A DNA stretch of 64,000 bases from Escherichia phage ZX4221, in sequence record OR498728.1. One strand, written 5' to 3'. The translations under genes were made by a program, and so were the position numbers. A model generated the notes under the pieces. The model was not told where the DNA came from. It was given only the letters and a program-made list of their open reading frames with translations, and did no database searches. Position 1 is the first letter of the stretch; each line of letters begins with the position of its first letter. Below are positions 3,715 through 49,550 of the stretch, piece by piece.

Positions 3715-4379
3715 TCTTTCACCATAGCATTTCTGAACTGACGTTGAGTTTCTCTTGTAATTTCGTCTGGAGTAAACCCTGCTTTCAGCATATCTCTGAA
3801 AAGAACTTCTAAGTGATTCTTTTCAATGATGTAAATTGCATTCTGCACAGATGTTTTAAGTTCCTTCAGGTCACTGCTAATTTCTTCGCACTTGTTGACA
3901 ATCTCTGTATCAACTTTCTTAAAGACTGGCATGGTATATCTACGACCACCATTAGCAGCATCCATGAAAAATTTAAAAGATTCCTCAGAGTCCTTTAAAG
4001 CAATCCCGATAAAGTCCTTGTAAGCACCTGTGAAAGCTAAAGACTCAATCTCAGCAGTTGAGTAAACAGTTCCTGCACACAGTCTTGCAGAGGTACTAAA
4101 TGTGTAGCTTTGTGTTATGTCAAAGTCTAAGTTCTTCAGTGGTCGAAAATAAACTGTGCCAGTATGTGAGACATGTGTTACAACAGCCTCCACACTCTTT
4201 GAAGGGTTCTGTTTAACATACAGGATAATTTTATCGTGTTCTTTCACTTTAGGCATATCTATTCTCCGGAAACTAAAAAAGGGAACTACCTCTCGATAGC
4301 TCCCATCATAGTTAATATTGTATACTCGGTCAAGAGTATTTTTTAGGCAGTAATGCGCTACGCTTGTTGCTCTCTTCAC
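3711..4379 (-). CDS. hypothetical protein (222 aa)
   Basis: ORF-track ORF in leftward operon. Confidence 0.5.
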   Translation of the reverse strand: MKRATSVAHYCLKNTLDRVYNINYDGSYREVVPFFSFRRIDMPKVKEHDKIILYVKQNPSKSVEAVVTHVSHTGTVYFRPLKNLDFDITQSYTFSTSARLCAGTVYSTAEIESLAFTGAYKDFIGIALKDSEESFKFFMDAANGGRRYTMPVFKKVDTEIVNKCEEISSDLKELKTSVQNAIYIIEKNHLEVLFRDMLKAGFTPDEITRETQRQFRNAMVKE

Positions 4380-5936: not shown

Positions 5937-6327
5937 AAAAACCTCTCTCTGCTTGTTCGATTTTTGCTCTTAAAATTTCACAATGTTGAAAATGGTAGTT
6001 AGCTTCTTGTTCATGTGTTGCTAACTGCCTTTCAAGAACAGTTTTATAATAACCTGCAAGTTGCTCTTTTGTCAACGGGTGTTCTGAAATAATATCAAGT
6101 CCACTTTCGCCAAGAGGGTTGAATTGTCCATACTCATTGACATTGTAAGTCTCAAACTTGAACAGGCCATTGTTCACAGACTCAATAGGCGACAGTTCAA
6201 CAAGCTCTACAGTAAACCGTGTATACACCTTGTCGCCTCTTGAAACCACATTATTTCCGACAATGCGTACAAGCGAACCATTACGTGTGTACTTAAAAGT
6301 CCCAAAGTCACTAGCCCAAAGCTTCAT
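5929..6327 (-). CDS. hypothetical protein (132 aa)
   Basis: ORF-track ORF; followed on its strand by terminator at 6342..6368. Confidence 0.5.
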   Translation of the reverse strand: MKLWASDFGTFKYTRNGSLVRIVGNNVVSRGDKVYTRFTVELVELSPIESVNNGLFKFETYNVNEYGQFNPLGESGLDIISEHPLTKEQLAGYYKTVLERQLATHEQEANYHFQHCEILRAKIEQAERGFYE

Positions 6328-8228: not shown

Positions 8229-8596
8229 TTCTTTTTAGCCTCTAAACGTGCGTTTAATCTAAAATAGCCTTTATGTTGTGGAGACACATCACCAACAACG
8301 ATACCTTCAACTTTATAACCTTTACCGATTACATACTGGATATCCATAAGAAATGTACCAAGTCCTACAATGTGGAACATTGGATATAATAACTTATCTG
8401 AATCTGGGAGATTAATATCTGGGTTGTAGGTAGGTTGTTTACTAGTAGGTGTAATATCTTCTTCAGGCCATTTACTTAGTCTCCATGTCAAAGGTGTTGG
8501 GATAACATCATTAAGATTGTACCTCCCACCATTCTCCACGGAATGGATATAGGATTGTAGGAAGCAATAAAAGTCTTTTGCACTCTTAGCTTTCAT
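8225..8596 (-). CDS. hypothetical protein, paralog of the N-domain of the Ig-repeat protein
   Basis: Shared pattern K.K...DF..F....V..G.RY.......PLT....WPE.DI ... SD.LLY ... MD.QY.I with 6843..8228. Confidence 0.5.
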   Translation of the reverse strand: MKAKSAKDFYCFLQSYIHSVENGGRYNLNDVIPTPLTWRLSKWPEEDITPTSKQPTYNPDINLPDSDKLLYPMFHIVGLGTFLMDIQYVIGKGYKVEGIVVGDVSPQHKGYFRLNARLEAKKK

Positions 8597-8607
8597 TAAA
8601 TATCCTT

Positions 8608-8636
8608 ATAAATAGATAAAGGGGCATTAGCCCCTG
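8608..8636 (-). terminator. Possible rho-independent terminator
   Basis: Minus strand AGGGGC-TAAT-GCCCCT hairpin followed by TTTATCTATTT (interrupted T-run). Confidence 0.4.
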
Positions 8637-8643
8637 TTTACAC

Positions 8644-9234
8644 TTAAGCTTTGGTCTTAAGTAGGTTCTTAAGTTTTTTGAGATTCATGCTCTCGTCAAA
8701 CTTAAAACCAAATCCATTGACATAATCAATGAACTCGGATTTCTTACTAAGTGATAGCGCGTAACTCATATCAAAGTTATTACTTGTTTCTGCGTCTGGA
8801 CTAGAGTTCACATCAAATGAAATTTCTGTAGGCTCTTGCTTGCTACTTCTCATATTATCAATCAATAGGCATGTATAGTTCGCTGGATAGAAGTTTGCAC
8901 TACCATCAACATACCCATACTTATTGTTGTGAATAAGGTTTGAAAATACCTTAAGAAATGTTTCTGAGTCGTGGCATACAAGTTTGAATTGGCTGCATTC
9001 TCCAAGAGCCACTAAAGAATAAGGGCTTTCACTATCAATGTCGTAGTTTGGATTTGATGTTGTAACCGTCACACGCATCAAGTTATTAGCAATAGTCTTC
9101 TGCTTGAAAGAATTTGGGACATAGTGAAGACCTCTATCACACTGATTAACTAACTCTTTAAGTAGGTCATTTGCATATGGTGAATTAATTGATACAGAGC
9201 CATCACTATTATAGTTAAAACTTACTGTTAACAT
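8644..9234 (-). CDS. hypothetical protein (196 aa)
   Basis: ORF-track ORF. Confidence 0.5.
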   Translation of the reverse strand: MLTVSFNYNSDGSVSINSPYANDLLKELVNQCDRGLHYVPNSFKQKTIANNLMRVTVTTSNPNYDIDSESPYSLVALGECSQFKLVCHDSETFLKVFSNLIHNNKYGYVDGSANFYPANYTCLLIDNMRSSKQEPTEISFDVNSSPDAETSNNFDMSYALSLSKKSEFIDYVNGFGFKFDESMNLKKLKNLLKTKA

Positions 9235-9461
9235 TTTTCAGTTCTCCTGCGATTTATGATTTTGCTGCAATAGAGAAACGAAGTAAACTCACTGGAAGAA
9301 ACCATTAAGTGTTGTTCACTAGATTGAGCCATTGCCCTGAAATACATTCCAGTCAAAGCATCGTAGTGACTATTCTTTCCAATTGAGGTTATATAGCCAT
9401 GACTCTTTGCAGTTTTATATAAATCTATAATATCTGCGATTTCTAATTGGGAACTACACAT
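9228..9461 (-). CDS. hypothetical protein (77 aa)
   Basis: ORF-track ORF, first gene region of leftward operon. Confidence 0.4.
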   Translation of the reverse strand: MCSSQLEIADIIDLYKTAKSHGYITSIGKNSHYDALTGMYFRAMAQSSEQHLMVSSSEFTSFLYCSKIINRRRTEKC

Positions 9462-9702
9462 AGATAATCCTCTTGTCTTCTGTAATTTTGAAAGAACAGG
9501 TACAGACCAATTTCAGAGGATGAATAGTAGAGTGACTCTACCCTTTTTGATTCCTTACAGTGATTGGTATTTTTACCTTTCTTCGGGTTGTTTGATTTTC
9601 TCATTAAGTCTCCTTTGTAGAACAAGGCAGACCTACAGCTTTAAGTAAGATGGTACAGTAATCCATACAACAAGTCAAGAACTATTGCAAGTTAAAAAAG
9701 TT

Positions 9703-9727
9703 GTTGACAAAGGACTTGACAAGGTGT
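9703..9727. promoter_or_regulatory. Conserved double TTGACAA motif (copy 1) in divergent switch region
   Basis: GTTGACAAAGGACTTGACAAGGTGT; near-identical copy at 52310..52334; spacing to any -10 is not canonical. Confidence 0.45.
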
Positions 9728-9785
9728 AGGCTTATAAATACTTAGAAGATAACTTAAAAGGTTCCTCTAAAAAGGCTATTTAAAC

Positions 9786-9805
9786 AGATATCTTTCTGGA
9801 TATCT
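9786..9805. promoter_or_regulatory. Inverted repeat AGATATC-N6-GATATCT, operator-like
   Basis: Perfect 7 bp arms seen directly, ~50 bp upstream of CDS 9854. Confidence 0.35.
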
Positions 9806-9853
9806 ATCTTTTATCTTAAAAGCCTTTTAAGAGGTCTTATAAGAGGCATACCA

Positions 9854-10225
9854 ATGAAAAACAGAACAAACAAAGGCCAGTTTAAAAAAGGCCAGTCTGG
9901 AAACCCATCTGGAAGACCAAAAGGCTCTCGTAACAAAAGCTCACTTGTAAAAGCTCAACTGACCATTGATAATTCTGCTGAGTTTGCTGCAAAGTTGTTT
10001 GAGGCGATTGTTACAAGGGATGCTGCTAAGCTTGCAGAGTTCGGTTTAAACACAGATGACGTAACCATCAAGAGCATGATTGAGGTCGGTAAAACTATCA
10101 TGACTCACTCAGCAGGTGAGATGAAAGCAATTGCAGCAGATACTAAGAAGACCCCTGATAATGGTGGTCAACCACAGACAGATAACAAACCAACGTTCTC
10201 TGCTGTAGCGACTCTCAAAAAATAA
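9854..10225 (+). CDS. hypothetical protein with GNPSGRPKG motif (123 aa)
   Basis: ORF-track ORF; AAGAGG Shine-Dalgarno 8 nt upstream of ATG. Confidence 0.55.
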   Translation: MKNRTNKGQFKKGQSGNPSGRPKGSRNKSSLVKAQLTIDNSAEFAAKLFEAIVTRDAAKLAEFGLNTDDVTIKSMIEVGKTIMTHSAGEMKAIAADTKKTPDNGGQPQTDNKPTFSAVATLKK

Positions 10226-10237
10226 TTTTAAAAGGTG

Positions 10238-10267
10238 TTGACAGACTCTACAAAGTTACTCTAAAGT
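10238..10267 (+). promoter_or_regulatory. Possible sigma70-like promoter
   Basis: TTGACA at 10238, 17-18 nt spacer, weak -10 (TAAAGT). Confidence 0.3.
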
Positions 10268-10306
10268 CTGTCACATCAAACAACAAATGAGAAAAGAGAG
10301 TAAAAT

Positions 10307-11722
10307 ATGAGCGAATTATTTAAACATGCGCACCTTCATGCAGGTCGAACTGAAAATGGTGCTGTAAACCATACTTCATCAATGTCTGCTCTGGTAGACT
10401 TCTACAAAGCCGCTGGCTCAAGCCGTAGCAATGTAGAAATCTTACCAGACCTGTTCTACAAAGCTTTGCGTGAGGATGTTGATGTTGCAGTTCGTATTTT
10501 ACTGCATATGCGAGATGTACGAGAAGGTATGGGTGAGCGTAAAGCTTTCCGAACTGTTTTACTTCAAGCGATTGAAGATAAGGTTTTAGAACCTACACAG
10601 GTTCTTCGCATTATGGATAAGATTGCAGAGCTTGGTCGTTTTGATGACTTCAAAATCTTCGTAGGTACTCGTTTTGAGACAGATGCCTTCAAACATTTAG
10701 AAGCAGCATTACTAGACCCTGCAACAGCAGGTTTAGCGGCTAAGTGGTTACCACGAGTAAAACCACGCCACAAACAGTTTGTAAAACGTTTCTGTAAGTT
10801 TGCAAACTTAAGTGAGAAGGAGTATCGCACACTGTTATCTGCACTGTCCGATACGGTTGAGCAAAAAATCTCTGCTAATGAGTTTGGTAAGATTGACTAC
10901 AGCAAGATTCCTTCACTCGCTGCTGCACGTTACCAAAAGCTCTTTAACCGTAAAGATGGTGAACGTTACAAAGCTTATATCGAGTCACTCTCAAAGGGTG
11001 AGGCTAAGATTAACGCTGGTGCTGTTTACCCATACGATGTGATTAAATCTATCAAGTATGGTAATGCAGGTGTTGCTAATGAGCAGTGGAAAGCACTACC
11101 AAACTGGATGGCAGAGGGTGAAAACATCTTGTGTATGACTGATGTTTCAAGCTCAATGTCTTGGGTGAATCTTGGTTCAATCACTGCCCTTGATATTGGC
11201 GTATCACTTGCCTTGTATGTAGCAGAACGCAATACAGGTTGCTTTAAGAATGAGTTAATGGTTTATTCAACAAACCCTCACTTCATCGAACTGAGTGGTG
11301 ATTTGAGAAACCGTCACCGTCAGGTAATGCGTCATGTTGAATATGGTTCAACTAACTTACAAGCAGCTTTTGACCGCATTCTTGAAATAGGTAAGAGAAA
11401 CAACTTGACTCAGAAAGATATGCCAAGTAAGCTTATTATCTTCTCTGATATGGAGTTTAATCAGGTTGATGGTGCAAATGGTCGTACAAACTTTGAAGCA
11501 ATTCAGAGTAAGTACAAAAAAGCTGGATACGAAATGCCACAACTAGTATTCTGGTACTTAGCAAACCGTAATGGTACTTGCGAAGTATCTGTTAAAGATA
11601 ATGGTGTAGCAATGGTATCAGGGTTCTCTCCAGCCACTTTAAAAGCTCTGCTTGGTGGTGAGAAGTTTGACCCAATCAACGTAATGCTCAAAGCAGTAAT
11701 GGTTGACCGTTACATCTGGTAA
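10307..11722 (+). CDS. vWA (MIDAS) domain protein, putatively Ro60/TROVE-like RNA-binding protein
   Basis: 471 aa; C-terminal half has MIDAS-like TDVSSSM ... GSTN ... FSDME; N-terminal TENGAV...ALVDFYKAAGSSR resembles the start of TROVE domains from memory; good RBS; gene is certain, TROVE assignment is inference. Confidence 0.6.
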   Translation: MSELFKHAHLHAGRTENGAVNHTSSMSALVDFYKAAGSSRSNVEILPDLFYKALREDVDVAVRILLHMRDVREGMGERKAFRTVLLQAIEDKVLEPTQVLRIMDKIAELGRFDDFKIFVGTRFETDAFKHLEAALLDPATAGLAAKWLPRVKPRHKQFVKRFCKFANLSEKEYRTLLSALSDTVEQKISANEFGKIDYSKIPSLAAARYQKLFNRKDGERYKAYIESLSKGEAKINAGAVYPYDVIKSIKYGNAGVANEQWKALPNWMAEGENILCMTDVSSSMSWVNLGSITALDIGVSLALYVAERNTGCFKNELMVYSTNPHFIELSGDLRNRHRQVMRHVEYGSTNLQAAFDRILEIGKRNNLTQKDMPSKLIIFSDMEFNQVDGANGRTNFEAIQSKYKKAGYEMPQLVFWYLANRNGTCEVSVKDNGVAMVSGFSPATLKALLGGEKFDPINVMLKAVMVDRYIW

Positions 11723-11730
11723 AAAGTTTA

Positions 11731-11768
11731 AAAAGGGTATTGACAATGTGTTTAATACCCTTTAATAT
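11731..11768 (+). promoter_or_regulatory. Sigma70-like promoter for the tRNA array, embedded in a hairpin
   Basis: TTGACA 11740-45, 17 nt spacer, TAATAT 11763-68; flanked by 9 bp inverted repeat AAAGGGTAT/ATACCCTTT. Confidence 0.55.
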
Positions 11769-11830
11769 GTTCTACATAGAAACGAAATGAGAGCTTTTCT
11801 AAGATACTGAAAAATATTTTAAAAAAGTTC

Positions 11831-11860
11831 TTGACAACCACTAAAAAATAATGTTAAAGT
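11831..11860 (+). promoter_or_regulatory. Possible second promoter upstream of first tRNA
   Basis: TTGACA at 11831-36 with weak -10 about 17-18 nt downstream. Confidence 0.3.
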
Positions 11861-11886
11861 GGTTACATAGAGTTTGAAAAGTTTAT

Positions 11887-11963
11887 CTCTGTTTAGCTCA
11901 GCTTGGTAGAGCGTTCCGTTTGGGGCGGTAAGGCCGGAGGTTCAAGTCCTCCAACAGAGACCA
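11887..11963 (+). tRNA. tRNA-Pro (anticodon TGG)
   Basis: Hand-folded: acceptor CTCTGTT/AACAGAG, D-stem GCTC/GAGC, anticodon loop TTTGGGG, T-arm GGAGG-TTCAAGT-CCTCC, CCA encoded. Confidence 0.75.
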
Positions 11964-11970
11964 AATTAAT

Positions 11971-12048
11971 GTTCCAGTAGACAAAACGGTAAAGTCACCA
12001 CTCTTTCAAAGTGGATATTTGAGGGTTCAAATCCCTTCTGGAACGCCA
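11971..12048 (+). tRNA. tRNA-Glu (anticodon TTC)
   Basis: Acceptor GTTCCAG/CTGGAAC, anticodon stem CCACT/AGTGG with loop CTTTCAA, T-loop TTCAAAT, CCA encoded. Confidence 0.7.
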
Positions 12049-12055
12049 GTCTTGA

Positions 12056-12128
12056 CAGAAGACCAATTGCAGCAAACTTAATCTTATTCATCTGACACGA
12101 AATCGGACAAAGAAGAGATTTGGTCTGG
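12056..12128 (+). ncRNA. Stem-closed structured element A (CAGAAGACC ... GGTCTGG family), Y-RNA-like candidate
   Basis: 5' CAGAAGACCAA pairs with 3' TTGGTCTGG (7 bp); conserved 5' box CAGAAGACCnnnTnCAGCAA; inner hairpin AATCT/AGATT; directly follows tRNA-Glu. Confidence 0.4.
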
Positions 12129-12139
12129 TCATTAAGAAT

Positions 12140-12216
12140 TGCGGGTATAGAGAAAGGGCGTCTCACATGTCTCATTAGCATGGTATCGGCAGGTTCGACT
12201 CCTGCACCCGCCTCCA
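12140..12216 (+). tRNA. tRNA-Met (anticodon CAT), copy 1
   Basis: T-arm GCAGG-TTCGACT-CCTGC, acceptor TGCGGGT/ACCCGCC with mismatch at pair 1-72, anticodon loop CTCATTA; CCA encoded. Confidence 0.6.
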
Positions 12217-12222
12217 ATTTTG

Positions 12223-12283
12223 CAGAAGACCGTATTCAGCAACAAACTACTTTTTGCGGATAAAAGAAAAAAACACGGTCTGG
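12223..12283 (+). ncRNA. Stem-closed structured element B (same family)
   Basis: 5' CAGAAGACCGT pairs with 3' ACGGTCTGG (7 bp); same 5' box as element A. Confidence 0.4.
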
Positions 12284-12294
12284 CAATGTATTAA

Positions 12295-12371
12295 GGTTAG
12301 GAAGCACATAAGGTATGTGCGGTCGCCTGTTAAGCGAATGGCACAGGGTTCGAATCCCTGACTAACCGCCA
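12295..12371 (+). tRNA. tRNA-Asn (anticodon GTT)
   Basis: D-stem GCAC/GTGC, anticodon loop CTGTTAA, T-arm CAGGG-TTCGAAT-CCCTG, acceptor GGTTAGG/ACTAACC, CCA encoded. Confidence 0.7.
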
Positions 12372-12380
12372 AATTTAAAT

Positions 12381-12468
12381 GTGTCGTTATCCCGTAGATG
12401 GTAGCGGTGGGGACTGTAAATCCCTTGTCATTGAGACTCGGTAGGTTCGACTCCTACACGGCACACCA
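12381..12468 (+). tRNA. tRNA-Tyr (anticodon GTA), long variable arm
   Basis: 88 nt; acceptor GTGTCGT/ACGGCAC, anticodon stem GGGGA/TCCCT loop CTGTAAA, T-arm GTAGG-TTCGACT-CCTAC, CCA encoded. Confidence 0.7.
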
Positions 12469-12474
12469 AATAAA

Positions 12475-12552
12475 GGTTATGTAGTTTAATCTGGTTAAAA
12501 TACTCCCCTGTCACGGGAGATGATGAGGGTTCAAATCCCTTCGTAACCGCCA
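12475..12552 (+). tRNA. tRNA-Asp (anticodon GTC)
   Basis: Anticodon stem CTCCC/GGGAG perfect, loop CTGTCAC, T-loop TTCAAAT, acceptor GGTTATG/CGTAACC, CCA encoded. Confidence 0.75.
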
Positions 12553-12639
12553 AATTATAATAAGTATTTCAAGATGATGTTTTGAGAGGGCTATTTAGCC
12601 CCTCCCTTAAAGAGTTCTTACGAGTATTCTTTAAAGGAG

Positions 12640-12713
12640 CAGAAGACCAAATGCAGCAAGAATGTATGAAATTTCAAGCCAATTTAATTTTGAAAATTTA
12701 AACTTGGTCTGGC
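12640..12713 (+). ncRNA. Stem-closed structured element C (same family)
   Basis: 5' CAGAAGACCAA ... 3' TTGGTCTGG; inner hairpin AAATTTCAA/TTGAAATTT. Confidence 0.4.
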
Positions 12714-12725
12714 TCAACAAATTTA

Positions 12726-12857
12726 CAGAAGACCGTTTACAGCAAAACTTAAACAATCTATTTCTCCGGTAAAGAAAAGGCGAAGGTTCGATTCCTTCAC
12801 TCGGCAGATGTCGAGTTGGTGTAATGGTAGCACTTAAGATGATAAACAACGGTCTGG
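12726..12857 (+). ncRNA. Stem-closed structured element D enclosing a circularly permuted tRNA-like module; Y-RNA (YrlA-type) candidate
   Basis: Outer 8 bp stem AGACCGTT/AACGGTCT; inside, in order: anticodon-like arm TTTCT-CCGGTAA-AGAAA, T-arm GAAGG-TTCGATT-CCTTC, ACTCGGC-A-GAT-GTCGAGT acceptor hairpin, D-arm GTGT-AATGGTA-GCAC. Confidence 0.5.
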
Positions 12858-12860
12858 TAA

Positions 12861-12999
12861 TTATCTTTGTAGATAAGTTATTAAGCTTCCCTGTGAGTAT
12901 GCGACCACAAAGGTGAAAGGGTAGATTCTAGATTTAACCCGAAAAGACACATCGCTACAGACCTTAAGCAAGTCTGGGTAGCTTATCTACAAAGATAAT
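12861..12999 (+). ncRNA. Structured element bounded by a perfect 17 bp inverted repeat
   Basis: TTATCTTTGTAGATAAG (12861-77) and its exact reverse complement (12983-99) enclose ~105 nt with internal hairpins. Confidence 0.4.
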
Positions 13000-13004
13000 T
13001 TAAT

Positions 13005-13080
13005 GGAAGTGTAGCAGAATGGTGATGCGGCAGACTTTTAATCTGACAGGCGATGGGTTCGAATCCCTCCACTTCTACCA
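13005..13080 (+). tRNA. tRNA-Lys (anticodon TTT)
   Basis: Acceptor GGAAGTG/CACTTCT, anticodon loop CTTTTAA, T-loop TTCGAAT with imperfect T-stem ATGGG/CCCTC, CCA encoded. Confidence 0.6.
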
Positions 13081-13084
13081 ATAT

Positions 13085-13161
13085 GGTTCAGTCGCAGATA
13101 AGGTAATGCAGGGGTTTCATAAGCCCTATGAATGTGGGTTCGATTCCCATCTGAACCTCCA
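13085..13161 (+). tRNA. tRNA-Met (anticodon CAT), copy 2 (initiator, elongator or Ile-lysidine not resolved)
   Basis: Acceptor GGTTCAG/CTGAACC perfect, anticodon stem GGGGT/GCCCT loop TTCATAA, T-arm GTGGG-TTCGATT-CCCAT, CCA encoded. Confidence 0.7.
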
Positions 13162-13162
13162 A

Positions 13163-13238
13163 GCTGGTATAGTTAAGAAGGTTATAACACTCCCCTGATA
13201 AGGGAACATCGGTGGTTCGATTCCACCTACCAGTACCA
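13163..13238 (+). tRNA. tRNA-Ile (anticodon GAT)
   Basis: D-stem GTTA/TAAC, anticodon loop CTGATAA, T-arm GGTGG-TTCGATT-CCACC, acceptor GCTGGTA/TACCAGT, CCA encoded. Confidence 0.7.
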
Positions 13239-13253
13239 ATTCCAATAAAGTTG

Positions 13254-13282
13254 TTGACATTGAGATGTGACCACTTTATAGT
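13254..13282 (+). promoter_or_regulatory. Internal sigma70-like promoter within tRNA array
   Basis: TTGACA 13254-59, 17 nt spacer, TATAGT 13277-82. Confidence 0.55.
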
Positions 13283-13574
13283 AACTAAAATACTTCATAA
13301 TATGTATAATTCAAACACCAATACATGAGTGTTAGACGTAACACAATGTGGGGAAATTTGTTGTACATATTCTGAATAGTTTTCGTTGCGTAGCGTCTAT
13401 TTTGCAAACTTAAAATAAATGCAAACGACAATGTTTTTCTGGCAGTAGCTTGATAGGCTAAACACCAGTGAGGTCTTCCAACCCCTCATCAAAGAATTTG
13501 GCGTACTCGCCCACGGTATGATTAATAAGGTGGGCATCTTTAAGGGCTTTTTAAGAGAGTCTTTAAAGATTAAT

Positions 13575-13651
13575 GCACCCTTAGTTCAACTGGACAGAGC
13601 AAATGACTTCTAATCATTGAGTTACAGGTTCGAATCCTGTAGGGTGTGCCA
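13575..13651 (+). tRNA. tRNA-Arg (anticodon TCT)
   Basis: Anticodon stem AATGA/TCATT perfect, loop CTTCTAA, T-arm ACAGG-TTCGAAT-CCTGT, acceptor GCACCCT/AGGGTGT, CCA encoded. Confidence 0.75.
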
Positions 13652-13793
13652 AATAGTTAGCAGATTGCTTAGACGACCTTATCGGGTCTCCGTGTAAGGA
13701 GGTGGTCTGTATCTCATGTTTTCCAGAACATGTAAATAATCTGAGAAGGGGCTTTACAGTGTTGCGAAAATACGGTAAGCTTCGAATTATAGT

Positions 13794-13876
13794 GTGGGAC
13801 GATGTTAAGACTCTAAGGCATGAGCAACGGCCTCCAAAACCGTTTCAAAGGGGTTCAACTCCTCCGTCCCATGCCA
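13794..13876 (+). tRNA. tRNA-Trp-like (anticodon CCA) with atypical extended D-region
   Basis: Acceptor GTGGGAC/GTCCCAT, anticodon arm ACGGC-CTCCAAA-ACCGT, T-loop TTCAACT, CCA encoded; about 8 extra nt between acceptor and D-stem, so canonical fold not achieved by hand. Confidence 0.4.
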
Positions 13877-13889
13877 AAGTCTTATTAGG

Positions 13890-13977
13890 GGTAGGTAGCG
13901 GCTAATGGTAGCCAAACTGTCTTGAAAACAGTTGCCACTGTAGAGATACGGTGAGGGTTCGACTCCTTTACTTACCG
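13890..13977 (+). tRNA. tRNA-Ser (anticodon TGA), long variable arm, CCA not encoded
   Basis: Acceptor GGTAGGT/ACTTACC, 3 bp D-stem, anticodon stem ACTGT/ACAGT perfect with loop CTTGAAA, ~20 nt variable arm, T-loop TTCGACT. Confidence 0.6.
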
Positions 13978-14235
13978 CCTAATAAGATTTTACACCGTCC
14001 ATGCTTGCTCGCATTTTCGGTTTATCCCTCGTGTATTGTCGTACACACTGATAAAGCACCTAGTAGGTGTCACGGAGAAGAGATAATATCAAGCTCTCCA
14101 AAGGTTCTAGTCACCGGATTGAACAAGACTATGCAAAGACCTAAATAGGTCTTTTTAGAGGGCTTCTAAGGTTATTACAGCTTGTTGTGGAACCTTGTTG
14201 CTTAGGTTCTTAGAAGTTCTCTAAAAAGATTTAAT

Positions 14236-14312
14236 GCACCTATAGCCCAACTGGTAGAGGCAGCAGACTTAGAATCTGCTCAGTGTGAGTTCGAATCTCT
14301 CTAGGTGTACCA
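14236..14312 (+). tRNA. tRNA-Leu-type anticodon TAG, class I (short variable arm) architecture
   Basis: 77 nt; acceptor GCACCTA/TAGGTGT, anticodon stem GCAGA/TCTGC perfect, loop CTTAGAA, 5 nt variable loop, discriminator A, CCA encoded. Confidence 0.6.
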
Positions 14313-14319
14313 AATTAAT

Positions 14320-14395
14320 GCAGGTGTAGCAAAATGGTTATGCGGCTGACTCTTAATCAGTAAGACGATGGGTTCAATTCCCTCCACCTGTACCA
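14320..14395 (+). tRNA. tRNA-Lys (anticodon CTT)
   Basis: Paralog of tRNA-Lys(TTT): acceptor GCAGGTG/CACCTGT, anticodon loop CTCTTAA, T-loop TTCAATT with same imperfect T-stem, CCA encoded. Confidence 0.6.
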
Positions 14396-14401
14396 AACAT
14401 T

Positions 14402-14477
14402 GGGGATGTAGTTTACATGGTTAAAACATAAGTTTTGCAAACTTAAGTACAGGGTTCAATTCCCTGCTTCTCCACCA
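14402..14477 (+). tRNA. tRNA-Ala (anticodon TGC)
   Basis: G3:U70 wobble pair present in acceptor stem; anticodon stem TAAGT/ACTTA perfect, loop TTTGCAA; T-arm CAGGG-TTCAATT-CCCTG; CCA encoded. Confidence 0.75.
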
Positions 14478-14483
14478 ATTAGT

Positions 14484-14558
14484 GCATCCATAGTTTAAAC
14501 GGGAAAATTACAGTCTTCCAAACTGAGGTTGAGGGTTCGATTCCCTCTGGATGCTCCA
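14484..14558 (+). tRNA. tRNA-Gly (anticodon TCC)
   Basis: Acceptor GCATCCA/TGGATGC perfect, anticodon loop CTTCCAA, T-arm GAGGG-TTCGATT-CCCTC, CCA encoded. Confidence 0.75.
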
Positions 14559-14565
14559 AATTAAT

Positions 14566-14641
14566 GCTCCTATCGTATAATTGGCTATTACGGTTGCCTT
14601 GTAAGCAACTTATCAGGGTTCGAATCCTTGTGGGAGCACCA
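14566..14641 (+). tRNA. tRNA-Thr (anticodon TGT)
   Basis: Anticodon stem GTTGC/GCAAC perfect, loop CTTGTAA, T-arm CAGGG-TTCGAAT-CCTTG, acceptor GCTCCTA/TGGGAGC, CCA encoded. Confidence 0.75.
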
Positions 14642-14645
14642 ATTC

Positions 14646-14731
14646 AGAGGTCAAGTGAAAGACCGCTGGTGTCAACTGAAGACCGTAACAAATTCCACGG
14701 AGTTGAGTTAGCGGCACAACTTCAGACCTCT
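14646..14731 (+). ncRNA. Structured element E, divergent relative of the CAGAAGACC family
   Basis: Outer stem AGAGGTC/GACCTCT; contains CTGAAGACCGTAACAAATT resembling the family 5' box; nested stems CCGCT/AGCGG and CTGAAG/CTTCAG. Confidence 0.3.
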
Positions 14732-14736
14732 TTCAT

Positions 14737-14811
14737 ACTCGCTTAGTTTATATGGTAAAACATCACCCTTACAAGATGGAGAAAAAGGTTCAAGTCCTTT
14801 AGTGAGTACCA
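14737..14811 (+). tRNA. tRNA-Val (anticodon TAC)
   Basis: D-stem GTTT/AAAC, anticodon loop CTTACAA, T-arm AAAGG-TTCAAGT-CCTTT, acceptor ACTCGCT/AGTGAGT, CCA encoded. Confidence 0.7.
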
Positions 14812-14812
14812 T

Positions 14813-14890
14813 GTTCCAGTATCCCAATTGGCAGAGGATGCAAGCTCAAACCTTGTACTAGTGACGGTTCGAATCCGTCTTGGAACACCA
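14813..14890 (+). tRNA. tRNA-Leu-type anticodon CAA, class I (short variable arm) architecture
   Basis: 78 nt; acceptor GTTCCAG/TTGGAAC, anticodon stem GCAAG/CTTGT, loop CTCAAAC, ~6 nt variable loop, T-arm GACGG-TTCGAAT-CCGTC, discriminator A, CCA encoded. Confidence 0.55.
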
Positions 14891-14895
14891 ATTTT

Positions 14896-14971
14896 GCAGG
14901 ATTAGTTCAAATGGATAGAGCAACAGTCTACGAAGCTGTTAATAGGGGTTCGAATCCCTTATCCTGCGCCA
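14896..14971 (+). tRNA. tRNA-Arg (anticodon ACG)
   Basis: Acceptor GCAGGAT/ATCCTGC perfect, D-stem GTTC/GAGC, anticodon loop CTACGAA, T-loop TTCGAAT, CCA encoded. Confidence 0.75.
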
Positions 14972-14989
14972 GATAAGTAAGAGGAATTT

Positions 14990-15232
14990 ATGCAAACATT
15001 AATCGTCGTTGAACATGAAAATTCCAATAGTATTGAGTTTGTAAGGGTTCCCACTATAGATACCCACATTTTCTTGAAAGTCGGATGGGGATGTGACCCA
15101 ATAAAAGTAGAAAATTTTATTGGTCATTACTTTGGTGGAAGACAACTTAAAAGCGTCAATTTTGAGACAATGTTACCAGAAAACTCAGAAACAAATAATA
15201 ATGTTTATCTCCTTACGAGGATTAGACAATGA
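14990..15232 (+). CDS. hypothetical protein inside tRNA array (80 aa)
   Basis: AAGAGGA Shine-Dalgarno 6 nt before ATG; stop overlaps next start (ATGA). Confidence 0.45.
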   Translation: MQTLIVVEHENSNSIEFVRVPTIDTHIFLKVGWGCDPIKVENFIGHYFGGRQLKSVNFETMLPENSETNNNVYLLTRIRQ

Positions 15233-15786
15233 GATATCTGAAGTATGCTTCATGGATTTTCCTAGCTTTGTTAGACCCATTGGCAGCAACCTTAGCAGTT
15301 ATCTTAGCACCCTTTGTAGTCCCATTCTACAGTGAGAAGAAAGGCCATCTACCTTTTGGATTCAGATGGATGGAGACATATGACAACCCGATTGATGGCG
15401 ATGAAGGTCATATGAAACGATGGGCTAAGATTAGAAAGATTGGTAAGCTCGGTGTCTATATGCAGAGAGTTGGCTGGCTCTGGAGAAACAAAGCTTATAA
15501 CTTCTCTTACCATGTGTTAGGAAGAGATGTAAAAGATGTTACTAAGTGGAAAGGTAATATCAACGTGAGTTCTGACCCTGAAGATAATCAGACAGGTTAT
15601 CTCCTAATGTGGAACAGTAATGCTTGGGGATTATTTGCTTTTATCCCATCAATTAAAATCTTTGGTAAACAATTCTACTGGAGAATTTATGTTGGATGGA
15701 AACTTAAAAGTGTTGTCCCAGAAGAAAGAGCATTCTCAAGGGAAAGAGTTATGTTGGCATTCTTTATTCATCCACTGAGAAAGTAA
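15229..15786 (+). CDS. hypothetical protein with hydrophobic N-terminus inside tRNA array (185 aa)
   Basis: ORF-track ORF; translationally coupled to 14990..15232; N-terminal WIFLALLDPLAATLAVILAPFVVPF looks membrane-associated. Confidence 0.5.
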   Translation: MRYLKYASWIFLALLDPLAATLAVILAPFVVPFYSEKKGHLPFGFRWMETYDNPIDGDEGHMKRWAKIRKIGKLGVYMQRVGWLWRNKAYNFSYHVLGRDVKDVTKWKGNINVSSDPEDNQTGYLLMWNSNAWGLFAFIPSIKIFGKQFYWRIYVGWKLKSVVPEERAFSRERVMLAFFIHPLRK

Positions 15787-15794
15787 AGATTTAA

Positions 15795-15870
15795 AGGGGA
15801 TTAGTTTACAAGGTTAAAACCTCGGTCTTTGAAATCGAAGAAGTTGGTTCAATTCCAACATCCCCCGCCA
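15795..15870 (+). tRNA. tRNA-Gln (anticodon TTG)
   Basis: Anticodon stem TCGGT/ATCGA, loop CTTTGAA, T-arm GTTGG-TTCAATT-CCAAC, A1-C72 mismatch at top of acceptor, discriminator G, CCA encoded. Confidence 0.65.
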
Positions 15871-15872
15871 AT

Positions 15873-15951
15873 GCTCCATTACTCCAATTGGCAGAGAGGC
15901 CAGACTTAAAATCTGTGTTATGTATCGGTTCGAATCCGATATGGAGTACCA
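15873..15951 (+). tRNA. tRNA-Leu-type anticodon TAA, class I (short variable arm) architecture
   Basis: 79 nt; acceptor GCTCCAT/ATGGAGT, anticodon stem CAGA/TCTG, loop CTTAAAA, ~7 nt variable loop, T-arm ATCGG-TTCGAAT-CCGAT perfect, discriminator A, CCA encoded. Confidence 0.55.
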
Positions 15952-15956
15952 AATTT

Positions 15957-16032
15957 AGCGGTATAGCATAACTGGCAATGCAGCAGTCTCTGAAGCTGTC
16001 TTATTAAGGTTCAAATCCTTATGCCGCTGCCA
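15957..16032 (+). tRNA. tRNA-Gln (anticodon CTG)
   Basis: Acceptor AGCGGTA/TGCCGCT, D-stem GCAT/ATGC, anticodon loop CTCTGAA, T-arm TAAGG-TTCAAAT-CCTTA, discriminator G, CCA encoded. Confidence 0.65.
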
Positions 16033-16063
16033 CTTCTAAGGGTTCTTACGAGAGTCCTTAAAT

Positions 16064-16139
16064 GTGGCCTTATCATAAATGGTAATGACCCATGCTGTGA
16101 ACATGGTCTATACGGGTTCAAATCCCGTAGGTCACCCCA
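16064..16139 (+). tRNA. tRNA-His (anticodon GTG)
   Basis: Anticodon stem CCATG/CATGG perfect, loop CTGTGAA, D-stem TCAT/ATGA, T-arm ACGGG-TTCAAAT-CCCGT, discriminator C; no encoded G-1 (preceding base is T). Confidence 0.7.
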
Positions 16140-16145
16140 ATTTAT

Positions 16146-16221
16146 AGTCCAAGTAGCTTATATGGTTAAAGCGCGTGTCTGAAAAACATGAGAAGAGGGT
16201 TCAAATCCCACTGGACTACCA
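16146..16221 (+). tRNA. tRNA-Phe (anticodon GAA), irregular acceptor/linker geometry
   Basis: Anticodon stem CGTGT/ACATG, loop CTGAAAA, D-stem GCTT/AAGC, T-loop TTCAAAT; acceptor pairs only as 6 bp or with a 4 nt linker to the D-stem; boundaries uncertain. Confidence 0.55.
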
Positions 16222-16237
16222 ATTTCAAAGGTGCTTA

Positions 16238-16972
16238 ATGAAAGAGATGACAGAACAAGGTAAGGAGATTTTTAATCTCTTAAAAACCGGTAGAGGGTTT
16301 TCTAATCCCCTTATTACTGGTGCAGCAGTTCTCGGTGGAACCGTAGCTGCCTCTACATCACTTGTAAGCTCTATTAGCTCTGTAACAGACCCTACAATAA
16401 AGGATAAGCTTATTGCTGCTGGACTTACAACAGTTCTGCTTAACAGCTTTACAACGAGTCTGACAAGCACTACATCAACCACTAAGACACTGACAGATTA
16501 TGGTCAAAAGTCCATTGATGAGTTTTCATCACGTATGCAGGTAGCAAAAGGATATTCCAATGTTATGGGTGCAGCAGGAGAACAAGTCGGTTGTACACCA
16601 TTTAGTGGTATTATGGGTGTTGCTACAGAATATGGTCAAAAAGCTATTGACACAATTAACAGTGCACTAGATGGTGTTAATGATGTGTTAAGTGACTTAC
16701 AAGATGCTATTGATGAAGGTCTTGATACTATTTCTGATTTAGCTAACCAAGCTGTTAGCAAGATTAATGAAGGTATCTCGAAGATTACAGCTTATGCAGA
16801 TGAAGTTGTGCAGATGATTGAAGAAGAAGCTGCCCTTATTGCAGAGTACCTTAAAACGAATATCAATGGGTTCTTAGCAGGTATCTTACCAGACTGGTTT
16901 GATGATGCTTGTAAAACTGGTGTAATTGATACTATTGCAACACCAGAAATGAAGAACGCATTACAGAAATAA
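16238..16972 (+). CDS. hypothetical Ser/Thr-rich protein (244 aa)
   Basis: ORF-track ORF trimmed to first ATG with RBS (AAAGG) that does not overlap tRNA-Phe. Confidence 0.5.
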   Translation: MKEMTEQGKEIFNLLKTGRGFSNPLITGAAVLGGTVAASTSLVSSISSVTDPTIKDKLIAAGLTTVLLNSFTTSLTSTTSTTKTLTDYGQKSIDEFSSRMQVAKGYSNVMGAAGEQVGCTPFSGIMGVATEYGQKAIDTINSALDGVNDVLSDLQDAIDEGLDTISDLANQAVSKINEGISKITAYADEVVQMIEEEAALIAEYLKTNINGFLAGILPDWFDDACKTGVIDTIATPEMKNALQK

Positions 16973-16973
16973 T

Positions 16974-17066
16974 GGAAGATTAACCCTAAAAGGTAAGGGA
17001 GCAGTTTGCTAAACTGCCAGTAGCTGAGAAATCGGTGTACCAGTTCAAGTCTGGTATCTTCCTCCA
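16974..17066 (+). tRNA. tRNA-Ser (anticodon GCT), long variable arm
   Basis: 93 nt; acceptor GGAAGAT/ATCTTCC perfect, anticodon stem GCAGT/ACTGC perfect, loop TTGCTAA, T-arm ACCAG-TTCAAGT-CTGGT, CCA encoded. Confidence 0.75.
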
Positions 17067-17070
17067 ATTT

Positions 17071-17146
17071 GAATCCGTGACAGAAATGGCTATGTGCCTG
17101 TCTGCAAAACAGGTTTATAAGGGTTCGAGTCCCTTCGGATTCTCCA
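17071..17146 (+). tRNA. tRNA-Cys (anticodon GCA)
   Basis: Acceptor GAATCCG/CGGATTC perfect, anticodon stem CCTGT/ACAGG perfect, loop CTGCAAA, T-arm AAGGG-TTCGAGT-CCCTT, CCA encoded. Confidence 0.75.
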
Positions 17147-17183
17147 AGTTATTTTACTCTCTCTCAATTAAAATAATAATAAT

Positions 17184-17243
17184 GCCCTGCTATAAGTATT
17201 CTTCCTTTCGCTACCGAAGAGTATTTTTAGACAGGGCTTTTTT
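17184..17243 (+). terminator. Possible terminator after tRNA array (long-loop hairpin plus T-run)
   Basis: GCCCTG ... CAGGGC stem with ~42 nt loop containing an inner hairpin, followed by TTTTTT. Confidence 0.45.
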
Positions 17244-17308
17244 ACAGAGTTATACTTTATAAGAAGACTTATACAGTATGTCTCTGACGTACATTGTGGT
17301 TTCTCCTT

Positions 17309-23287: not shown

Positions 23288-24394
23288 ATGTTGACTAATT
23301 CTGAAAAAAGCAGATTTTTCCTTGCTGACCTGACTGGTGAAGTCCAGTCTATCCCAAATACTTACGGGTATATTTCCAACTTAGGTCTGTTCCGTTCAGC
23401 ACCAATCACCCAAACTACTTTCCTTATGGACTTGACTGATTGGGATGTTAGCTTGCTTGATGCGGTAGACCGTGATAGCCGTAAAGCAGAGACTAGCGCA
23501 CCTGAGCGTGTTCGTCAAATCAGCTTCCCAATGATGTACTTCAAAGAAGTTGAAAGCATCACTCCTGACGAGATTCAGGGTGTACGTCAGCCAGGCACTG
23601 CAAACGAACTGACTACTGAAGCTGTAGTACGTGCTAAGAAGCTGATGAAGATTCGTACCAAGTTCGATATTACTCGTGAGTTCCTGTTTATGCAAGCTCT
23701 GAAGGGTAAAGTTGTTGATGCTCGTGGTACTCTGTACGCTGACCTGTACAAGCAGTTCGACGTTGAGAAGAAGACTATCTACTTCGACCTTGACAACCCT
23801 AATGCTGACATCGACGCTGCTATTGAAGAACTGCGTATGCACATGGAAGACGAAGCTAAGACTGGCACTGTAATCAACGGTGAAGAAATTCACGTAGTTG
23901 TTGACCGCTTATTCTTCAGCAAACTGGTTAAGCATCCTAAGATTCGTGACGCTTATCTTGCACAGCAGACTCCGCTGGCTTGGCAACAGATTACTGGTTC
24001 TCTGAGAACTGGTGGTACTGACGGAGTTCAGGCTCACATGAACACTTTCTACTACGGTGGTGTTAAGTTTGTCCAGTACAACGGTAAGTTCAAAGACAAG
24101 CGTGGTAAGGTTCACACTCTGGTGAGCATTGACAGCGTAGCGGCAACTGTTGGTGTAGGTCATGCTTTCCCTAACGTTTCTATGCTGGGTGAAGCAAACA
24201 ACATCTTCGAAGTGGCATATGGTCCATGTCCTAAGATGGGTTATGCAAATACACTTGGTCAGGAACTGTACGTATTCGAATACGAAAAAGACCGTGACGA
24301 AGGTATTGACTTTGAAGCTCACTCTTACATGCTGCCATACTGCACACGTCCTCAGTTGCTGGTAGACGTTCGTTCTGACGCTAAACCAGACTAA
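23288..24394 (+). CDS. major capsid protein (putative)
   Basis: 368 aa ORF after protease-scaffold with strong AGGAG-type RBS; assignment by position and size. Confidence 0.6.
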   Translation: MLTNSEKSRFFLADLTGEVQSIPNTYGYISNLGLFRSAPITQTTFLMDLTDWDVSLLDAVDRDSRKAETSAPERVRQISFPMMYFKEVESITPDEIQGVRQPGTANELTTEAVVRAKKLMKIRTKFDITREFLFMQALKGKVVDARGTLYADLYKQFDVEKKTIYFDLDNPNADIDAAIEELRMHMEDEAKTGTVINGEEIHVVVDRLFFSKLVKHPKIRDAYLAQQTPLAWQQITGSLRTGGTDGVQAHMNTFYYGGVKFVQYNGKFKDKRGKVHTLVSIDSVAATVGVGHAFPNVSMLGEANNIFEVAYGPCPKMGYANTLGQELYVFEYEKDRDEGIDFEAHSYMLPYCTRPQLLVDVRSDAKPD

Positions 24395-44802: not shown

Positions 44803-44917
44803 AATGACCTCAAAGTTATATTAAATTTTGTATTACATTGAGTATAAAAATAAGCTATAACACCTGACTTGTCAACAGACTTTATAGCTTATTTGGCAGA
44901 TTTTTTATAAGGTTACT

Positions 44918-49489: not shown

Positions 49490-49550
49490 GTGACCTCCTA
49501 TACAAGATATAGTATAAGGTACTCTTCCATGAGCACCTTGTCAATACTAA

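Follow-up and report, generated by a model that had tools for sequence, protein, structure and literature searches.

How is the transcription of a long phage tRNA array started when the array lies close behind a protein-coding gene, and could a single short hairpin between the two serve both of them? The sequence-only reading of the locus examined here had described a tRNA-array promoter embedded in a 9-bp inverted repeat, which could act as a terminator for the upstream vWA gene and as a promoter for the tRNAs. The observation was confirmed overall, and the interpretation was partly supported. As judged from the sequence, we lean towards the view that this promoter (P1) and its inverted repeat together form a composite 'stem-loop + promoter' cassette.

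The vWA-tRNA locus and its predicted promoters

The window, that is, the whole 64-kb stretch of DNA analysed, was assigned to a Felix O1-like myovirus because megablast with positions 10300-13300 matched Felixounavirus. Approximately 300 phage records were matched, with 97-98% identity to Felixounavirus members such as UAB_Phi87 and vB_EcoM_Shy. A full phage of this type belongs to the Ounavirinae and has a genome of about 88 kb with 39% G+C. The 3-kb query, which spans the vWA-tRNA region, was covered to at least 80% in 243 of the 300 matching phage records.

The features of the locus are listed in Table 1. The product of the vWA gene is labelled 'RNA-binding protein' in the NCBI annotation, and its VWA_2 match was weak. 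The tRNA array is led by tRNA-Pro. It is predicted to be fed by read-through from the vWA gene promoter (P0), by P1, by a second promoter (P2), and by internal promoters such as the one at 13254.

Table 1. Coordinates of the features at the vWA-tRNA locus and of distant promoters with a similar layout
Feature	Position	Strand	Evidence
P0, predicted vWA gene promoter: TTGACA (10238-10243), 18-bp spacer, TAAAGT; A/T-rich tract 5'	10238..10267	+	
P0 hairpin: core arms TGACAGACT (10239-10247) / AGTCTGTCA (10265-10273); outer pairs 10234-10237 / 10274-10277	10234..10277	+	
vWA gene, 471 aa; DUF2828, DUF7788 and VWA_2	10307..11722	+	domain search
A/T-rich UP-like tract of P1, GGTAAAAAGTTTAAAAAGGGTA	11718..11739	+	sequence
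5' arm of P1 inverted repeat, AAAGGGTATT	11732..11741	+	repeat search, conservation
P1 -35, TTGACA, perfect consensus	11740..11745	+	promoter scan; invariant in 36 distinct sequences
3' arm of P1 inverted repeat, AATACCCTTT, in 3' half of promoter spacer	11754..11763	+	repeat search, conservation
P1 -10, TAATAT (TAAGAT in Silverhawkium-type lineage)	11763..11768	+	promoter scan, alignment
P1 putative start-site region, TACATAGA	11773..11780	+	shared with P2; start inferred
P2: TTGACA (11831-11836), 18-bp spacer, TG-n-TAAAGT (TAAAGT at 11855-11860)	11831..11860	+	promoter and repeat scans, alignment
P2 inverted repeat: AACCACT (11836-11842) / AGTGGTT (11858-11864)	11836..11864	+	repeat search
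tRNA array, 26 genes	11887..17146	+	ARAGORN
-35 TTGACC (4333) in loop of 6-bp repeat ATACTC / GAGTAT	4322..4339	-	weaker case
-35 TTGACA (44875-44870) in loop of 13-bp inverted repeat (arms 44882-44894 / 44848-44860)	44847..44894	-	promoter, repeat and fold scans
TTGACA followed by stem AAGGTGCTC / GAGTACCTT, filling spacer and over -10	49516..49544	-	fold scan

An Rfam search of 9500-18000 at E <= 1 returned tRNAs and weak tRNA/tmRNA-like matches only, with none at 11723-11886; this region is therefore not a known RNA family. A non-coding RNA between P1 and tRNA-Pro was also considered and dropped, as 11781-11830 was the least conserved part between genera.

In the Erwinia Kolesnikviruses, the slot between two promoters is occupied by a tRNA-like RNA, without a vWA gene. 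A TTGACA-N17-TAAGAT...CATAG layout likewise stands ahead of their tRNA-Pro. The difference in gene content between Kolesnikvirus and Felixounavirus at this locus would be compatible with cassette exchange, but it is a single case.

Arrangement of the P1 promoter and its inverted repeat

The sequence order downstream of the vWA stop codon (TAA, 11720-11722) was aaagtttaa AAAGGGTATT gacaatgtgttt AATACCCTTT aatatg. The arms given by the repeat search were 100% complementary with 12 nt between them, so that the inverted repeat is real and measures 10 bp, not the 9 bp claimed. The unit of promoter and repeat is placed 10 nt past the vWA stop codon and 124 nt before tRNA-Pro.

The -35 hexamer starts 18 nt past the TAA, with a AAAAAGTTTAAAAAGGG tract upstream. 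With a spacer of 17 bp and a -10 hexamer matching at four of six positions, P1 reached 10 of 12 hexamer matches. Of the stem, 2 nt fall within the -35 and 1 nt within the -10. The -35 had been placed in the hairpin loop, which holds for GACA but not for the first two T's, these being the last bases of the 5' arm. The -10 TAATAT adjoins the hairpin just as described, with its first T doubling as the final base of the 3' arm. The tenth stem pair, T11741-A11754, was U-A in the window; 19 of the 36 distinct relatives had U.G instead.

P1 was supported as a predicted host sigma-70-type promoter that is rightly placed and oriented for the tRNA genes. Its transcription start would be an A at approximately 11774-11776, and its A/T tract appears to resemble the UP element consensus. 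A part of the original claim that did not stand is that of a single tRNA-array promoter, given P2 and the predicted internal promoters.

P2, P0 and distant promoters of similar layout

P2 lies 91 bp 3' of P1, between P1 and tRNA-Pro, and was equally conserved. The upstream A/T tracts of P1 and P2 form a 31-nt direct repeat with 77% identity. The octamer TACATAGA was found at an equal offset (+33 from the -35) in both promoters, and at P2 it occupies 11864-11871, directly after the inverted repeat. Exact matches to the pattern TTGACA-N27-TACATA in the window were P1 and P2 only.

At P0, the 9-bp repeat overlaps both hexamers, which were conserved in 23 distinct relatives. P0, P1 and P2 thus show a similar layout, each with its own unrelated inverted repeat. 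The upstream A/T tract of the P1 unit was common to only P2 and P0.

The layout also recurred at distant promoters. At the minus-strand promoter 44875(-), the 3' arm spans the -10 TATTTT, and the unit had an MFE of -15.8 kcal/mol. The unit at 49544(-) had an MFE of -16.3 kcal/mol, and both were in the lowest 2% of GC-matched windows. Stems that were shorter or included G.U pairs were seen at 49544(-), 57145(+) and 4333(-), and the 6-bp stem of the last could be due to chance. Four of the 13 perfect inverted repeats of at least 9 bp in the window overlapped predicted promoters, namely P0, P1, the minus-strand promoter at 44875, and the -10 of a promoter at 46740. The hairpin-promoter layout is a property of a subset of promoters and not of all.

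The sequence-only reading had proposed a search for further copies of the hairpin-promoter unit. In terms of sequence, this search gave nothing beyond the locus itself, as the half-site AAAGGGTAT was found only at the two arms and at an isolated position, 29147; in terms of layout, it was borne out by the other promoters. A metagenome scan with the -35 plus the -10/start-site pattern returned mostly the same phage group. An unrelated 174-kb contig (L048) had its own 7-bp inverted repeat at the same position; as a 20-nt pattern may match by chance in a collection of this kind, the contig counts for little.

Chance expectation and folding energies

Consensus promoter matches were not enriched at 8000-18000 (20 versus 24.2 +/- 4.6 in shuffles). 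Perfect 10-bp inverted repeats with a loop of 3-25 nt numbered five in the window, and 2.1 +/- 1.6 were expected from Markov simulations. Taken singly, the P1 promoter and the P1 repeat are each within chance. The P1 unit is above chance because the repeat coincides with the promoter, because the layout recurs at neighbouring and distant promoters, and because the arms are conserved in Felixounavirus and Mooglevirus, with variation concentrated in the loop outside the hexamer.

The RNA fold of P1 (11723-11785) had a z-score of -2.66, and six of 200 shuffles folded as well; the DNA fold had a z-score of -3.60. The RNA fold of P0 was stronger (z = -3.63; 0 of 200 shuffles as good), and the P2 stem fold was weak (z = -1.48). 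Compared with GC-matched windows, the promoter set folded better (p = 0.007), and four of 16 promoter regions fell in the lowest 3% of GC-matched folding energies. Compared with random windows from the whole-genome background, it folded no better (p = 0.70). The general statement that promoters fold better than background was rejected, as it fails against random windows and the GC-matched signal was driven by those four promoters.

Conservation of the stems among relatives

The P1/P2 alignment comprised 8 annotated relatives, 27 close IMG/VR loci, and 15 metagenome contigs carrying P1, which were reduced to 36 distinct sequences from Felixounavirus and Mooglevirus. For P0, the alignment used the 110 nt that precede the vWA start codon, chosen without reference to the arms, in 23 distinct sequences. 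The positions of P1 and P2 were fixed in all 27 close IMG/VR loci, and the mean column identity across the whole intergenic region was 93%.

The P1 hexamers were invariant in the 36 distinct sequences, except for one -10 base (TAAGAT) in two of them. Among the seven spacer bases from the P1 -35 to the 3' arm (alignment columns 41-47), five varied. These are the loop bases outside the -35 hexamer, and only 3 of the 20 arm columns varied by comparison. The boundary between conserved and variable sequence inside the P1 spacer tracks the boundary between arm and loop. Promoter function alone should not constrain the 3' arm, which lies in the promoter spacer.

The P1 stem was paired in 99.4% of cells: seven of the ten pairs never varied, two varied one-sidedly (U-A to U.G), and one was broken in two sequences. 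The P0 helix of 13 pairs was paired in 99% of cells in the 23 distinct sequences, and it was kept in the relatives L028-L031 although their loop was largely replaced. The P2 stem was paired in 96% of cells and was broken in Mooglevirus, which has an alternative inner stem, AACACTA/TAGTGTT. In the phage Maleficent lineage, the outer stem of P2 was broken and the alternative inner stem was present.

Compensatory double substitutions were absent from the P0, P1 and P2 stems among the 36 and 23 distinct relatives. This leaves the pairing unproven, and the conserved arms could reflect a non-structural constraint. Covariation as a proof of the stems was rejected on this ground, with no pair at P0, P1 or P2 changed on both sides. 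All seven informative transitions in the three stems gave G.U on the plus strand, where about half of transitions would be expected to break pairing (p ~0.008 if the changes are independent). Five pair-breaking transversions were found in the three stems, three of them in Mooglevirus. The G.U bias gives a modest hint that the stems may matter as plus-strand RNA.

The P1 hairpin as a possible terminator

In Felix O1, the same hairpin at the orthologous position corresponds to the predicted rho-independent terminators t42 and t43 (PMC3185647, Table 2). t42 is gggtattgacaatgtgtttaatacccttt at 23547..23575 with a dG of -10.2, and t43 is its complement with -9.2 (Whichard et al. 2010, PMC3185647). 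TransTerm had placed the Felix O1 hairpin on both strands (PMC3185647). The proposal that the element terminates the vWA gene agrees with these predictions and with a hairpin right after the stop codon; as an intrinsic terminator of the plus strand, the element appears poor.

On the plus strand, the P1 hairpin contains 3 G-C pairs and a loop of 12 nt, and in its tail, UUUAAUAUGUU, three U's precede AAUAU. A lenient terminator scan gave 12 pairs, of which 3 were G-C, with a loop of 8 nt and AATATGTTCT as the tail. The better U-tract (UUUUUAAACUUUUU) belongs to the minus strand, where no gene needs one. The A-run of the P1 tract becomes a U-run past the hairpin on that strand, which is probably a by-product of the upstream A-run. 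The P0 and P2 hairpins were without any U-tract, and the clear terminators of the same genome differ in being G+C-rich with short loops and T-runs. The P1 hairpin therefore appears weak as a plus-strand intrinsic terminator, and these weak features make attenuation or 3'-end protection likelier than efficient termination.

The position of the hairpins relative to the predicted starts restricts their possible role as RNA. At none of P0, P1, P2 and 44875(-) does the 3' arm extend past the expected start site. A hairpin upstream of its own promoter's start would not be in the transcript of that promoter, and so it could form as RNA only when transcription reads through from the gene before it. 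The P1 hairpin lies 5' of the P1 start, so its RNA form would require read-through from the vWA gene.

Published data on transcription come from Felix O1, in which RT-PCR showed a peak at 25 min for ORF 42 and at 5 min for the tRNA-region ORFs 45-49 (PMC3185647). The different peaks indicate some temporal control. They fit separate promoters and are no proof of P1, because P45 (window 13254) could explain them. Five promoters were named in the Felix O1 paper, none of them at the P1 locus (PMC3185647), and Table S1 for UAB_Phi87 (BPROM) contains P0 and lacks P1 and P2. Mapping of transcript start or end sites for Felix O1-like phages was not found in the literature.

A proposed composite cassette and its alternatives

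In the cassette model, P1 (11740-11768) would be a promoter for host sigma-70, preceded by an A/T-rich tract, and the upstream half of a tandem pair with P2, and the tRNA array would be started independently of the vWA gene. The inverted repeat would exist as RNA only at the 3' end of P0-derived vWA transcripts. There, the hairpin would most likely attenuate read-through and/or protect the 3' end of the vWA mRNA, and RNA polymerase would then reload on the same DNA. The Felix O1 authors had raised the question of how transcription passes the many terminators (PMC3185647). For this terminator, the model would offer an answer: a promoter inside the hairpin and a second promoter 91 bp on.

The promoter could also be the only functional part of the unit, with a functionless inverted repeat. 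Conservation of the 5' arm has an independent explanation because the arm overlaps the proximal UP-like tract, with which it would be kept together with the -35; the 3' arm could be kept since the spacer beside the -10 affects promoter strength. Complementarity would then be incidental, arising from A-runs that lie opposite T-runs on either side of a short G3/C3 core, and about two perfect 10-bp inverted repeats per 64 kb occur by chance. The lack of covariation in the stems, the high conservation of the intergenic region as a whole, and the P2 stem, which is both weak and broken in Mooglevirus, fit this explanation as well. It accounts poorly, however, for unrelated stems in a like position at three adjacent and at least two distant promoters, when the chance of a stem of at least 9 bp was estimated from the chance density at ~0.002-0.004 per promoter. 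A conservation boundary that follows the arm/loop boundary in the spacer, seven of seven informative transitions compatible with G.U on the plus strand, and a P0 stem that survives loop replacement also speak for more than a promoter, and we consider the promoter-only explanation rather unlikely. An operator is quite improbable, although the geometry would suit one: a dimeric phage or host protein would bind both arms and switch the promoter off or on during infection. The arm centres are ~22 bp apart, about two helical turns, and the -35 and the edge of the -10 would be covered. Repressor sites typically overlap both promoter hexamers, as the P1 palindrome does. Conservation of both arms without covariation is expected of a sequence-specific site, and the temporal control of ORF 42 (25 min) and ORFs 45-49 (5 min) in Felix O1 would also agree. 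A second site was nevertheless absent from the 64 kb, where the half-site beyond the arms occurred only once, and the entirely different arms of P0, P2 and the other hairpin-promoters would require a separate regulator for each. No cognate regulator was identified. The strand-specific G.U bias is also unexpected for a site in double-stranded DNA, and the Felix O1 authors found no phage-encoded proteins that modify RNA polymerase (PMC3185647).

The remaining alternative likens the unit to the promoter-early stem-loops (PeSLs) of T4-like phages and treats it mainly as a recombination joint, a homology patch or hairpin-forming DNA through which the vWA cassette was gained or exchanged, and it does not exclude the stem-loop/promoter cassette reading. 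The vWA gene is indeed flanked by the similar promoter units P0 and P1, and in the Kolesnikviruses a tRNA-like RNA takes the place of the gene between two promoters. Furthermore, of the 42 internal synteny break ends counted across the ORFan regions of four Felixounaviruses, 22 lay at most 45 nt from a repeated stem-loop element (type A or B, described below), and these elements with their margins cover 12-17% of the ORFan-region sequence; the comparison is confounded, given that elements sit in almost all ORFan gaps, where gene-sized indels must end, and that break ends were counted again in several genome pairs. At the vWA-tRNA locus itself, the coverage in 243 of 300 records and the fixed P1 and P2 positions in 27 of 27 IMG/VR loci speak for stability. 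The only inter-genus difference is a single one, and whole-gene indels necessarily end in intergenic DNA. The P1 stem is unique, and its homology to other units is limited to ~20-30 nt of the A/T tract and the -35. A recombination joint is therefore very doubtful here, and nothing at this locus suggests the recombination role to which the sequence-only reading had alluded.

Three other structures were rejected. Cruciform extrusion is unlikely given loops of 12-21 nt, which disfavour it. An N4-type hairpin promoter is a geometric misfit, with no short-loop hairpin at the start site. A MerR-type spacer operator also does not fit, the spacers being 17-18 bp and not 19-20 bp.

Returning to the composite cassette, its value is chiefly in annotation and as a testable model, and it should be no surprise for phage specialists. 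It provides concrete predicted start and end sites for the tRNA array of a phage group in wide use for the biocontrol of Salmonella and E. coli.

Comparison with known systems

The closest known elements are the PeSLs of the T4-like phages RB49/phi1, PST/T4 and nt-1/KVP40 (Arbiol et al. 2010, PMC2839356; Comeau et al. 2014, PMC4122927). They consist, in order, of the upstream stop codon, an AT-rich tract, a near-consensus sigma-70 promoter and a stem-loop, which lies mostly between the boxes or over the -10 (PMC2839356, PMC4122927). PeSLs occur in many copies, in hyperplastic regions and at indel joints, and promoter and terminator activities were measured for those of RB49 (PMC2839356, PMC4122927). 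The likeness to promoter stem-loop elements drawn in the sequence-only reading was apt. The P1 unit shares the order of parts, including a near-consensus promoter in the gap after a stop codon, and its stem-loop is inside the promoter and overlaps the boxes. Its stem, AAAGGG...CCCTTT, resembles the nt-1 consensus A3-4G3-loop-C3T3-4. The dual role proposed is also alike, an upstream terminator or attenuator and a promoter for the next unit.

The differences are equally clear. The phage of the window belongs to the Ounavirinae and is not T4-like. The P1 unit is single-copy in sequence and lies in a syntenically stable region with no sign of mediating indels, whereas PeSLs are a multi-copy motif of hyperplastic regions; beyond P2 and P0, its layout was found again, without sequence similarity, at 44875(-), 49544(-) and 4333(-). 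P1 would drive tRNA genes and not an ORFan with a Shine-Dalgarno site. The P1 stem is rich in A/T and closes a loop of 12 nt, and the activities measured for the RB49 elements are putative here.

Elements closer to the PeSLs were found in the ORFan region, which lies outside the window and was taken from UAB_Phi87 (L061) and compared in UAB_Phi87, Barry, wV8 and BPS17L1. Type A has the form '(T)AAAGTAC-TTTACA-(A/G)GGGGCTTA-loop-[TAAAGT/TATCTT]AAGCCCC-AGATAAAGAG...SD-ATG' and is present in 5-6 copies per genome in these four phages. It is exactly of the RB49 PeSL kind, with a G4...C4 stem between TTTACA and the -10. Type B is a second stem-loop, GGGGAGGG...CCTTCCCC, with 2-5 copies. The two types are found in nearly all intergenic gaps of the UAB_Phi87 ORFan region and at indel joints of this hyperplastic region. 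The Felix O1 paper has them as 57-bp 'direct repeats', and the wV8 record as the features DR_1-DR_9; they were absent from the 64-kb window. The ORFan region was covered to at least 80% in only 43 of 252 records, and the vWA-tRNA region in 243 of 300. Elements of the PeSL kind thus exist in the Felix O1-like lineage, and the P1 unit appears to be a single-copy variant of them in a stable region.

These elements permit a broader reading, which we regard as possible yet tentative: hairpin-in-promoter cassettes across the early and accessory regions of Felix O1-like phages (Ounavirinae) may act as RNA on the upstream transcript and as DNA that reloads RNA polymerase, with the ORFan copies serving as gene-swap joints. 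The hairpin would then form or protect the 3' end of the upstream transcript just before the next start. If this is true, PeSL-type 'mobile regulatory cassettes' would not be peculiar to T4-like phages and would have had an independent origin or spread in an unrelated lineage of myoviruses; the vWA/Ro60-like gene with P1 would be a captured module ahead of the tRNA array. The promoter-stem-loop cassette idea, so far confined to T4-like phages, would be extended to the Ounavirinae, and the intergenic 'direct repeats' of wV8 and Felix O1 could be read as cassettes at gene-swap joints.

Compared with t42/t43 of Felix O1, the hairpin is the same; there it was treated solely as a terminator, and here it carries the embedded P1. 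The hairpin-as-terminator half of the present finding is already published as a prediction, and the embedded promoter is absent there.

A further parallel is found in the host. The rRNA operons of E. coli have tandem P1-P2 promoters with UP elements. As in the phage, two strong sigma-70 promoters with A/T tracts stand ~90-120 bp apart ahead of stable-RNA genes. The phage promoters have no sequence homology to those of the host, and their -10-to-start regions are A/T-rich (GTTCTAC, GGTTAC), whereas those of the host are G+C-rich. A further difference from the host is the inverted repeat that is wrapped around each of the two phage promoters.

Stem-loop elements and inverted repeats

The ORFan region beyond the window, examined in UAB_Phi87 (L061, covering 15500-40200 of that genome) and its counterparts in other Felixounaviruses (L062-L064), carries two stem-loop elements. 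An element of the type of the promoter-early stem-loop cassette (PeSL) of T4-like phages, TTTACA-GGGGCTTA-loop-[-10]AAGCCCC-AGATAAAGAG, was present in 5-6 copies per genome, and a second stem-loop, GGGGAGGG..CCTTCCCC, was present in 2-5 copies in the same region. Many synteny breaks among the four genomes adjoin one of these elements. Both are annotated in wV8 and Felix O1 merely as 'direct repeats'.

Within the window, the 10-bp inverted repeat GTTTCTCCTT / AAGGAGAAAC flanks a clean terminator (GACGGT..ACCGTC, then T6) and is predicted to base-pair with the ribosome-binding site that serves the ORF starting at 17343. This structure may couple termination with translation control. The two copies of CATCACTTAA-N19-TTAAGTGATG are separated by 1.5 kb and were found in large intergenic regions (44803-45302 and 46334-46924), and no promoter hexamers were detected within either copy. 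Possible roles for this pair are as an origin or as a site for protein binding. The first ~1000 nt of the window (from position 1) contain no genes and are dense in TTAACA / CTTAACA repeats.

Coordinates of the elements and loci (window positions unless a locus is named)
Feature	Location	Strand
10-bp inverted repeat GTTTCTCCTT / AAGGAGAAAC	17299-17342	
Inverted repeat CATCACTTAA-N19-TTAAGTGATG, two copies	45114-45154; 46644-46682	
Spacers and gap in tRNA array	12049-12139; 12217-12294; 13327-13574	
Extended motif TTGACAAGG	9716-9724; 52323-52331; 49536-49544; 4614-4622	+; +; -; -
Extended motif TTGACAAGG, beyond window	L061 gaps 12449-12527; 20976-21028	
Promoter with P1-like -10/start region	L048 (Ga0233341_1000001, 174 kb) 3354-3240	minus
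vWA / tRNA-like loci	10307-11722; L037-L041; L004 1322-1460	
ORFan-region stem-loop elements	L061 ~996-6000; also L062, L063, L064	

Promoter-like elements

The extended motif TTGACAAGG was located repeatedly at or near strand-switch regions. Of its four sites in the window, three have TG after the motif, and at 9704 and 52311 it takes the form of a doubled -35, TTGACA-N7-TTGACAAGGTGT. The motif may define a promoter class of its own or be the site of a regulator.

A promoter set among tRNA genes in the metagenome contig L048 has a -10/start region identical to that of P1, a predicted sigma-70 promoter 5' of the tRNA array, and its own 7-bp inverted repeat is positioned as in P1. Directly after this promoter lies a hammerhead-ribozyme-like core (CTGATGA, the stem GTTCC..GGAAC, then GAAAC).

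tRNA array and tRNA-like elements

Two inter-tRNA spacers share the repeated unit CAGAAGACC...CAGCAA.CAAACT...GGTCTGG, the ends of which are complementary, and the longer gap in the array gave weak tmRNA-like Rfam matches (E = 0.0012, score below the gathering threshold). These spacers and the gap may contain small RNAs or tRNAs that have degenerated.

The 'vWA' protein encoded directly upstream of P1 consists of DUF2828 and DUF7788. Its orthologue, Bas63 gp130, has a Ro60-like structure according to a preprint, in which some 'tRNAs' downstream of gp130 were suggested to be Y RNAs (PMC11482910). Large contigs of unrelated phages encode distant homologues of it (29-40% identity), which lie ~450 nt from tRNA arrays or have tRNA-like T-arm fragments downstream of them. 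In Erwinia phage Roscha1, the corresponding interval between two promoters has no vWA-type gene and instead holds an unannotated tRNA-like element, which scored 50 bits against Rfam tRNA. Its anticodon loop is short, and the element sits within an extra long stem, an arrangement reminiscent of the tRNA-like bacterial Y RNAs.
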